Assembly (NCBI RefSeq): GCF_003790525.1
Contig: NZ_CP033635.1
Source of the DNA: Escherichia coli
GTDB lineage: Bacteria; Pseudomonadota; Gammaproteobacteria; Enterobacterales; Enterobacteriaceae
Strand: one strand, 5' to 3'
DNA: 64,000 nt
Below the pieces are notes generated by a model. It was not told where the DNA came from and did not search any database. It saw only the letters and a list, made by a program, of their open reading frames with translations. Shown piece by piece: positions 50,844-53,155 of the stretch. The position numbers and the translations under genes were made by a program. Within the stretch, counting starts at the first letter, position 1. Each line of letters opens with the position of its first letter.

Positions 50844-53155
50844 GTGCATATGTTTAAGCCCAGGATTTGCAGCTGGATAGGTTTACTTCCCCTGTTTATG
50901 CTGAGTCTTCCAGTACAGGCGGACCTTCGATGTGTTGCAAATGCAGTTGATATTGAACCATTTTTTTCTGCGGCTACCGCTGAAGATAAACAACAAGTTG
51001 AACAAGCTATCAACAGTAGCGTGAATCTTGTCCCCTTCGGTTTATCTGCATCGGACTGGAAAGTGCATCGTGGCGATTTAGTGGTAGACGGTAATATAGA
51101 GAGTAATCAAAAATTGATTGTTCTTGGCAATTTGACAGTCAAAGGTAATATTTCCACTTTCTCTCTTTCTAATCCATGGGTTATTCTCGGTGATGTGACG
51201 GCAACGAATATAGTTACGGATTCACCACTGTTAATTACCGGTTCGATAAATGCAAGTGGACTGGTATTTATCGACTCATATTACGATAATCCGTCTACGA
51301 TTAAGGGGAGTATTAATGCGCGTGGGATATTTATCAATGACATAATTGCACCTGTTGTTGCGTCTTCGACAAATAGTGAATTCATGGTCCGTACGAGTGA
51401 CAAAAATGACACTGAAAATGTCAAAAAAGCGCTGATGATAATAAATCCTGATGCATATTATTGGGATCTAATAAATGATGAAGATGCTCTGAAAGAAATT
51501 TTTAAGCGAAGCAATATTCGCATGGCAGGGAATGTCTGTAATCTGATGAAAAAGAAGCGCTGTTTCGCCCTAAGCCTTCTCCTGAGTTAGTGCAGGAATT
51601 GCAAATGCTGGATGAAGGCAACGTTGCTGCATTTGAAGGACGAGATATTGCGACATTTGATCTTGCCATAATGCGAACTCTCCCAAGGCTTAAAGGAATT
51701 TCAGCTAACCTACGCAAACAACTTATTAATAGCAATGATGGACAAACGATTGAAAGTATGGCGAGATATATGCCTGACAATGAGATTCTGGAGTTGACCG
51801 ATCAGCAATTGGGTTACCAGCCTGTTGTTCTGGGGTTGCTCGACCGTGAACCGCTCTCTGTCGAAATAATGACGCGAATGAGTCATCTACCTGATGGTGT
51901 CGGTCCGTTGAATCTTGCGCTACGTGAAAATCTCCCTCTGGATATCGTCATGACTCTGGCGAAAAGAGATTGGGATATGATCATTCAGGAGCTTTATAAA
52001 GATGCGTGGTTATTGCCCGAATCCATTATTGATGGCTATATCCGCAGTAATGATCCCACAATTCGTCAGGTCGGTGCTGGAGGACAACTCACCTACAATC
52101 AGGCAATGCAGTTGGCGAACGATTCATCAAACGATGTTGTCACAAGCTTAGCGTCAAAGCTGGCAGAGATGAAACACCATGGTCAATTGTTGCGGATGAC
52201 GCCACAAGAGAGTGACAAAATAGCAGTATATTTATACCAAAAATTCGAGAATGACGATGATCTAATAGGTGCGTTATTTTTAGCGTTGCCAGATAACTTA
52301 CAGTTTAATTTTGTTAAAAGGATGGAGAAAAAATCCCCTGCCTACTTTTGCTGTCGGGATATGCAGGTAATTCACTCTGACGCTGCTTTACAACGGTTAT
52401 TGACACGTTTCAACGATCCTGAGGGGTGGAGTAATCTGGCGAAAAATCAGTATCTGAGTACGGCGATGAAACAAAAAATTTGGCACCGCGCTTTATCGCA
52501 TCGAAAAAATAATCCGAAAGCAGATTCTGCAGCATATGAAACCAGCGCTGATATGATTTTGTCGGAGCTTATCAGCTACGGTGAAGTTGATGACCAGATG
52601 CTATTAAATGCCGCCTCTCTGATACGTTCGGAAGGCTGGGACTTTTTAGAGAGTGCATTAGTTAGTTGGGATAATTTACCCGCTGTTGTCCTCAAGGAAT
52701 TACAGCAAAATATGCCACGCAATGATATTTGGGCGAAGTTTTTTCTGAGGCAGGAAAACAGCTCTCGTGCGCAGGTTAACGAAGCGTTACGTGTTTATTA
52801 TGCACTTGACCCCGATGCTTTAGCACAACTGGATAAACTGGCAAAACAACCGGATCGTATATGGTGGAGTACGCTGGCGAAAAGCAATCTTACATTTTTC
52901 AAGTTCGGCGCACTTAACAATCGCCATACACCGTCTGCGGCACTGGCGGCAGAAATTGATCCCGAGTGGTGGATTGTGGCGATGAATAATCCCCGTTTTC
53001 CAGTTGATGTATTAAAGGCGAGGCTGAAACGTGATCCTTTGCTGGCGTTAGAGCTTGTTAAACCTGAACTGGATTTAGTCCGCCAGCTGGCGCTTAACGG
53101 TAAGACACGCGCAATACGGGAACAAGCGATGAGAAAACTTGATGAGTTGCATTGA
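50844..53155 (+). pseudogene. ydbD: ydbD homologue split into two frames (248-aa N-terminal ORF with signal peptide, then 521-aa ORF in the -1 frame)
   Basis: ORF1 50844-51590 and ORF2 51590-53155 overlap at TAGTG; together about 769 codons, which matches the single 768-aa ydbD I recall in K-12; frame break lies within 51542-51590, containing ATGAAAAAGAAG. Confidence 0.55.

Follow-up and report, generated by a model that had tools for sequence, protein, structure and literature searches.

In the 64,000-nucleotide stretch of Escherichia coli DNA analysed here (the window), the ydbD gene is split into two reading frames at a run of five A's that counts six in relatives. We put at about 60% the probability that the missing A is a homopolymer-length undercall in the window's assembly, and ydbD is probably intact in the organism itself. 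An undercall is the most likely origin because no other assembly of the lineage shares the loss, and one of them has all six A's and the intact gene. Normally, ydbD is a single gene of 768 codons that encodes a secreted protein, and the window is short of one A in the A6 run; translation from ATG 50850 therefore runs out of frame past ...CNLMKK and stops at the TAG at 51588-51590. According to the undercall reading, the A would have been lost in sequencing or assembly and not in the genome. The window's assembly, rather than the co-lineage draft described below, would then be the one in error.

Reading frames of ydbD in the window

The ORF listing covers the ydbD region with two ORFs of the plus strand, 50844..51590 and 51590..53155. 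The first one, in frame 0, encodes 248 aa from GTG 50844 or 246 aa from ATG 50850 and stops at TAG 51588-51590, its C-terminal end reading ...CNLMKKKRCFALSLLLS*, and the second one encodes 521 aa from 51590 and stops at TGA 53153-53155. The two starts are offset by 746 nt (3 x 248 + 2), which places the second ORF in the -1 frame. Read from 51542, this -1 frame gives SDEKEALFRPKPSPELVQELQ (translation of 51542-51640) and its translation starts with SDEKEALFRPKPSPELVQ. Since a TAA at 51539-51541 (+) closes the -1 frame upstream, setting the 5' limit of the interval, and the TAG ends frame 0, the switch between frames has to lie within 51542-51590. The split of ydbD, its -1 offset and the position of the switch had been described in an earlier note on this DNA, and they match both the ORF list and the translations.

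We therefore delimited a 5' part of 246 codons in frame 0 (50850..51590, +), whose start is the equivalent of the ATG of the SMS-3-5 ydbD CDS, and a 3' part in the -1 frame (51542..53155, +), which corresponds to residues ~235-768 of intact YdbD and includes the DUF2773 domain. The earlier note had attributed a signal peptide to a 248-aa N-terminal part. By inspection of the translation, a putative Sec signal peptide of 24 aa, MFKPRICSWIGLLPLFMLSLPVQA, is encoded at 50850..50921 (+), and its positively charged n-region, hydrophobic core and VQA before D look Sec-like by eye; the length, by contrast, has to be corrected to 246 aa from ATG 50850. As far as ...CNLMKK, the 5' fragment differs from SMS-3-5 YdbD only by A182T; the 11 residues that follow to its end, KRCFALSLLLS, are read out of frame.

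Two internal start candidates are present for the 3' part, GTG 51590 and ATG 51605. The latter is found 15 nt past the premature TAG, and an AGGA (51594-51597) lies 7 nt ahead of it. With this AGGA in place, gene callers report a 516-aa C-terminal ORF from ATG 51605, devoid of the signal peptide, in the Logan assemblies in which ydbD is split. Coupled re-initiation at ATG 51605 is conceivable if the deletion is real.

The A run of ydbD is one base shorter than in relatives

The gene was identified as ydbD by BLAST against 5,426 RefSeq complete E. coli genomes; PGAP annotates it as a 'DUF2773 domain-containing bactofilin' encoded by one 768-aa CDS. It lies between pdxI and ynbA (ynbA-ynbD), with the same neighbours as in SMS-3-5, and positions 50844-53155 of the window align with the SMS-3-5 ydbD over their full length and collinearly, with one SNP and one gap over 2,313 nt. 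When scored on the intact SMS-3-5 protein, Pfam DUF2773 covers the C-terminal residues 688-767 with E 3.7e-43, and Bactofilin gives only a weak hit, at residues 78-141 with E 0.12.

The alignments place the gap in an A5 homopolymer at 51549..51553 (+), which is A6 in relatives. The window reads GATG-AAAAA-GAAGCG, whereas FDAARGOS_497, a K-12 derivative and SMS-3-5 have six A's, with one gap in each alignment. In codons, the intact gene reads ATG AAA AAA GAA GCG CTG (MKKEAL) and the window ATG AAA AAG AAG CGC TGT, so that the junction peptide is ...NLMKKEALFR in the full-length protein and ...MKKKRCFALSLLLS in the truncated one. Adding back one A yields a single 768-aa ORF; one change in run length thus explains the whole frame change. 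The lesion affects codon ~236, leaves the remaining 530-odd codons in the -1 frame and parts the signal peptide and the bactofilin-like region from the C-terminal two-thirds of the protein. The frame change had been attributed beforehand to the A-rich tract and an alignment with ydbD from other E. coli genomes had been proposed for locating the indel; the alignment with intact ydbD confirms the attribution and narrows the indel to the loss of one A from the A6 run.

A draft assembly of the same lineage carries the intact gene

Compared end to end with SMS-3-5 (NC_010498.1), the 64-kb window shows six substitutions (1020, 4678, 28688, 39232, 51393 and 61409) and exactly one indel, that of the ydbD A run. 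A/T runs of at least 6 nt occur 64 times in the window and those of at least 5 nt 235 times, and the ydbD run is the only one that differs from SMS-3-5. Four of the six SNPs are nonsynonymous (PgmB A30V, LdhA D239N, YdbD A182T and HrpA L882R), and those in HrpA and LdhA are non-conservative. The ydbD substitution at 51393 (+; A in the window, G elsewhere) is private to the lineage.

Exact protein look-up found PgmB A30V, LdhA D239N and HrpA L882R together in two NCBI assemblies, the variants being carried by AYW30382, AYW30415 and AYW30426 of a 5,539,489-bp chromosome and by RLY45307, RLY45275 and RLY45264 of a draft (GCA_003686615.1, RDDW01). From ldhA to hrpA, the accession numbers advance by 11 steps in the AYW set and likewise in the RLY set, whose draft has an intact ydbD; the numbering was accordingly given no weight as to the state of the gene. 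As they are present in several independent assemblies, these three variants are real lineage markers. The draft contig RDDW01000009.1 matches positions 48766-64000 of the window over 15,236 nt with a single difference, one extra A. This contig shares 51393A, the marker that links it to the window, and 61409G, has the A6 run and encodes the intact 768-aa ydbD ORF; altogether the draft has at least four of the six private SNPs of the window. The shared private variants indicate that the draft and the window apparently come from the same strain. Two further sister assemblies with HrpA L882R, a third-party NCBI assembly (L018) and a Logan assembly (ERR1681564, L020), are also A6. The A5 allele is accordingly a singleton at the tip of the lineage, with zero substitutions from its nearest relative. 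A literature search for the draft accession found no papers.

Three explanations had been offered at the outset for the split gene, namely a genuine indel, a homopolymer error and, less likely, a frameshift-dependent gene. This list stands, and the draft shifts the ranking towards an error over a genuine pseudogene. Resequencing had also been named as a means of finding out whether a single frame would be restored; with its shared private SNPs and its A6 run, the draft is effectively such a second sequencing and does restore it.

The A5 allele is rare among complete genomes

A 34-nt probe starting just past a nearby CTG/CAG polymorphism matched 3,514 RefSeq complete E. coli genomes. A5 was found in two of them (~0.06%), the unrelated strains 510016 and ME8067 (the latter a laboratory strain), and the other matches, as listed, align with one gap and are consistent with A6. 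That the two-ORF layout might be the normal gene structure, shared by other strains, is therefore ruled out, since 3,512 of the 3,514 probed genomes fit an A6 run and one continuous ORF. No perfect match to the 65-nt or the 351-nt stretch around the site was obtained in the RefSeq complete E. coli genomes. Exact look-up in the protein collection retrieved neither the N-terminal fragment of the window nor the 521-aa GTG form, and the SMS-type A5 fragment with Ala182 was likewise absent.

Strains 510016 (NZ_CP025851.1, CXX11_RS00070) and ME8067 (NZ_CP028703.1, DBB47_RS12160) carry the same GATG-A5-GAAGCG lesion as the window, and PGAP annotates both genes as 'frameshifted'. Their N-terminal fragment is also 246 aa long and ends in KKKRCFALSLLLS. 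By contrast, their background differs from that of the window, with a K-12/ETEC-type ydbD that is ~95% identical and has CAG instead of CTG before the ATG; their A5 is independent of the window's. The ydbD of 510016, unlike that of the window, contains an additional internal stop, and ME8067 shows one gap and three SNPs in 5 kb.

Undercall or recent deletion

A genuine and very recent one-base deletion in the sequenced clone, arising by slipped-strand mispairing in the A6 run and making ydbD a fresh pseudogene, is a possible explanation that we consider less probable than the undercall. The products would be a 246-aa secreted fragment, made of the signal peptide, the bactofilin-like region and an 11-residue tail, and there might also be a signal-less C-terminal fragment of 516 aa from ATG 51605. 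The deletion is, after all, present in the sequence as given, and both halves of ydbD are undegraded and equal to SMS-3-5 except for A182T, as expected of a young lesion. The four nonsynonymous changes among the six SNPs are consistent with a very recent change that has not been purged. However, the closest assembly, which shares the private SNPs and differs by zero substitutions over 15 kb, is A6, so a real deletion could only have arisen after a split of essentially zero divergence, and the two further sister assemblies are A6 as well.

Other A5 contigs, retrieved through exact matches to the 516-aa C-terminal ORF or to the N-terminal fragments of K-12-type A5 alleles, bear on both explanations. 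Undercalls at exactly this run are demonstrably common in error-prone data, which counts against a genuine deletion. The SMS-type contig L007 (ERR4605540) has A5 and lacks two further A's within 5.9 kb, and four K-12-type contigs (L013, L015, L016 and L017) show 2-4 homopolymer deletions and no SNP in 3.7 kb; homopolymer deletions in such number without substitutions are the signature of a platform error. On the other hand, the A5 allele is found in other backgrounds, some of them free of neighbouring errors, which speaks against an error. The SMS-type contig L009 (SRR11867875) has A5 and no other lesion in 2.5 kb, and A5 is the sole lesion of the K-12-type contigs L012 and L014. With A5 as the only indel in L009, L012, L014 and ME8067, there is room for genuine recurrent deletions.

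Published work concludes that assembly errors account for many of the pseudogenes with a single lesion in public bacterial genomes (PMC11017572). Like the homopolymer-undercall pseudogenes of long-read or error-prone assemblies, the window has lost a single base of a run and the loss is absent from an assembly of the same lineage; it differs from them in having only one lesion in 64 kb. A generally error-ridden assembly is unsupported in this region, where the 64 kb show one indel although A/T runs of at least 6 nt number 64. The split ydbD is a textbook 'pseudogene' with a single lesion, which another assembly from its lineage fails to confirm. It is mainly a matter of quality control, and the reads should be checked before ydbD is counted as lost from this strain. 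Whether an error or a real mutation, the split involves nothing novel and no new mechanism.

ydbD is frequently absent or disrupted elsewhere

Regarding the consequences of a real deletion, ydbD is without a match in ~26% of complete E. coli genomes and is independently disrupted in others, by a T8 to T7 change in LS45, by an ISVsa5 insertion in EC476 and by a junction with foreign sequence in the Logan assembly SRR19561160 (L008). This frequent and often independent loss or breakage fits a genuine deletion. Being missing in about a quarter of the genomes and broken independently elsewhere, ydbD is clearly dispensable, and a real loss would be unremarkable: an envelope gene that is dispensable and poorly characterised would have been inactivated independently once more.

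In E. coli LS45 (L003), the T run within ccaTTTTTTTTctg, equivalent to position 50961 of the window, is one T shorter, and the annotation lists the gene as 'frameshifted'; this other homopolymer lesion in ydbD may be real or an error. The SRR19561160 contig opens with sequence foreign to ydbD (positions 1-25, TATCAAGAACTTGTTCGCACCTTCC), which abuts the TTAG at 51586-51589; past this junction the contig is 100% identical to positions 51587-56155 of the window. These 25 nt resemble the end of an IS5-family element and may mark an insertion at a YTAR target.

Frameshifting on the A-rich tract

A programmed -1 slip at AAA_AAG, by which truncated and full-length YdbD would both be made on purpose as with the two products of dnaX, is very improbable. 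In the A5 allele (ATG AAA AAG), A_AAG is in phase, and a -1 slip that moves the P-site AAA to GAA and the A-site AAG to AAA, followed by GAA GCG CTG, would yield a peptide identical to the wild type. Of the E. coli motifs, A_AAG and A_AAA_AAG are the most prone to shifting, owing to the weak pairing of the single tRNA-Lys with AAG (PMC5009743), and C_AAA_AAA, carried by an overexpression vector, shifted at 25-60% (PMC1851650).

The likeness to the dnaX slippery element suggested by the earlier note is nevertheless only partial. AAA_AAG is indeed present, as are the single tRNA-Lys and the -1 direction, but the in-phase motif is G_AAA_AAG and not the dnaX heptamer A_AAA_AAG: with G as its first base it is no canonical X_XXY_YYZ, and the P-site re-pairing from AAA to GAA is imperfect, although A_AAG has the right phase at the A site. 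The heptamer of the intact allele is out of phase. dnaX further relies on an upstream Shine-Dalgarno (SD) element and a downstream hairpin, stimulators that this site lacks. At -22.6 kcal/mol, compared with a mean of -23.1 for shuffles (z 0.14), the 86 nt downstream fold no better than shuffled sequence, and the sole SD-like element, AGGGA at 51527-51531, ends 17 nt upstream of AAA_AAG. In dnaX, the SD-like element lies ~10 nt upstream of the slip site. The two-frame layout is moreover unconserved, with A6 in the sister assemblies and only two A5 alleles among the probed genomes, both labelled simply 'frameshifted' by PGAP; unlike in dnaX, it arises by deletion in a single-ORF gene. On these three grounds (an unconserved layout, the lack of stimulators and the A6 sister assemblies), a programmed frameshift was rejected, and the frameshift-dependent gene considered in the earlier note is abandoned with it.

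Should the deletion be real, the A5 allele could plausibly be leaky. The deletion puts A_AAG in phase, so that a spontaneous -1 slip of tRNA-Lys on G_AAA_AAG would give wild-type YdbD (MKKEALF). Non-programmed suppression of 1-bp deletions in E. coli reaches up to 1-10% in test cases (PMC10861913), and the A5 allele resembles such cases in that its deletion falls within or beside a slippery stretch of lysine codons; the comparison is relevant only for a real deletion, in which case the -1 slip would restore both the wild-type frame and the wild-type sequence. A real deletion combined with such a self-correcting allele, yielding mostly a secreted fragment with the bactofilin domain only and a few percent of full-length YdbD, seems unlikely to us. 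Transcriptional slippage in E. coli needs about 8-9 or more A's and is not expected on five.

Least credible of all is a phase-variable contingency switch, in which the length of the A run would toggle the secreted protein on and off at high frequency. The gene that contains this mononucleotide run does encode an exported protein, and A5 alleles occur in several unrelated backgrounds. However, the run is only 6 nt long and contingency tracts typically have 8 nt or more, the off-length allele makes up only ~0.06% of complete genomes, and many of the other A5 calls adjoin further homopolymer miscalls.

Other features of the window and neighbouring loci

An Rfam pass over the window gave no match at the ydbD lesion site. 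At the gathering threshold, it detected the small RNAs McaS (25836-25931, -), FnrS (29309-29426, +) and MicC (34222-34342, +), which are expected features of E. coli.

At 43764-49718 (+), the window encodes a BigA/YdbA-type autotransporter as one intact ORF of 1,984 aa; K-12-type loci retain this gene only as an N-terminally truncated pseudogene. Positions 44094-44444, inside the autotransporter gene, contain short tandem-like internal repeats, with off-diagonal matches of 85-93% to the SMS-3-5 copy. In FDAARGOS_497 (L001), the interval between ydbL and pdxI, which is the place of the large autotransporter in the window, holds paaX/paaY remnants and a truncated HTH gene (365-1296). The structure of the region upstream of pdxI-ydbD varies among strains.

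On the other side of ydbD, the ynbD ORF (56514-57905, +; 463 aa) overlaps ynbC (54842-56599) by 86 nt, and annotations and gene callers disagree on the start of ynbD, giving products of 430, 438 or 422 aa.
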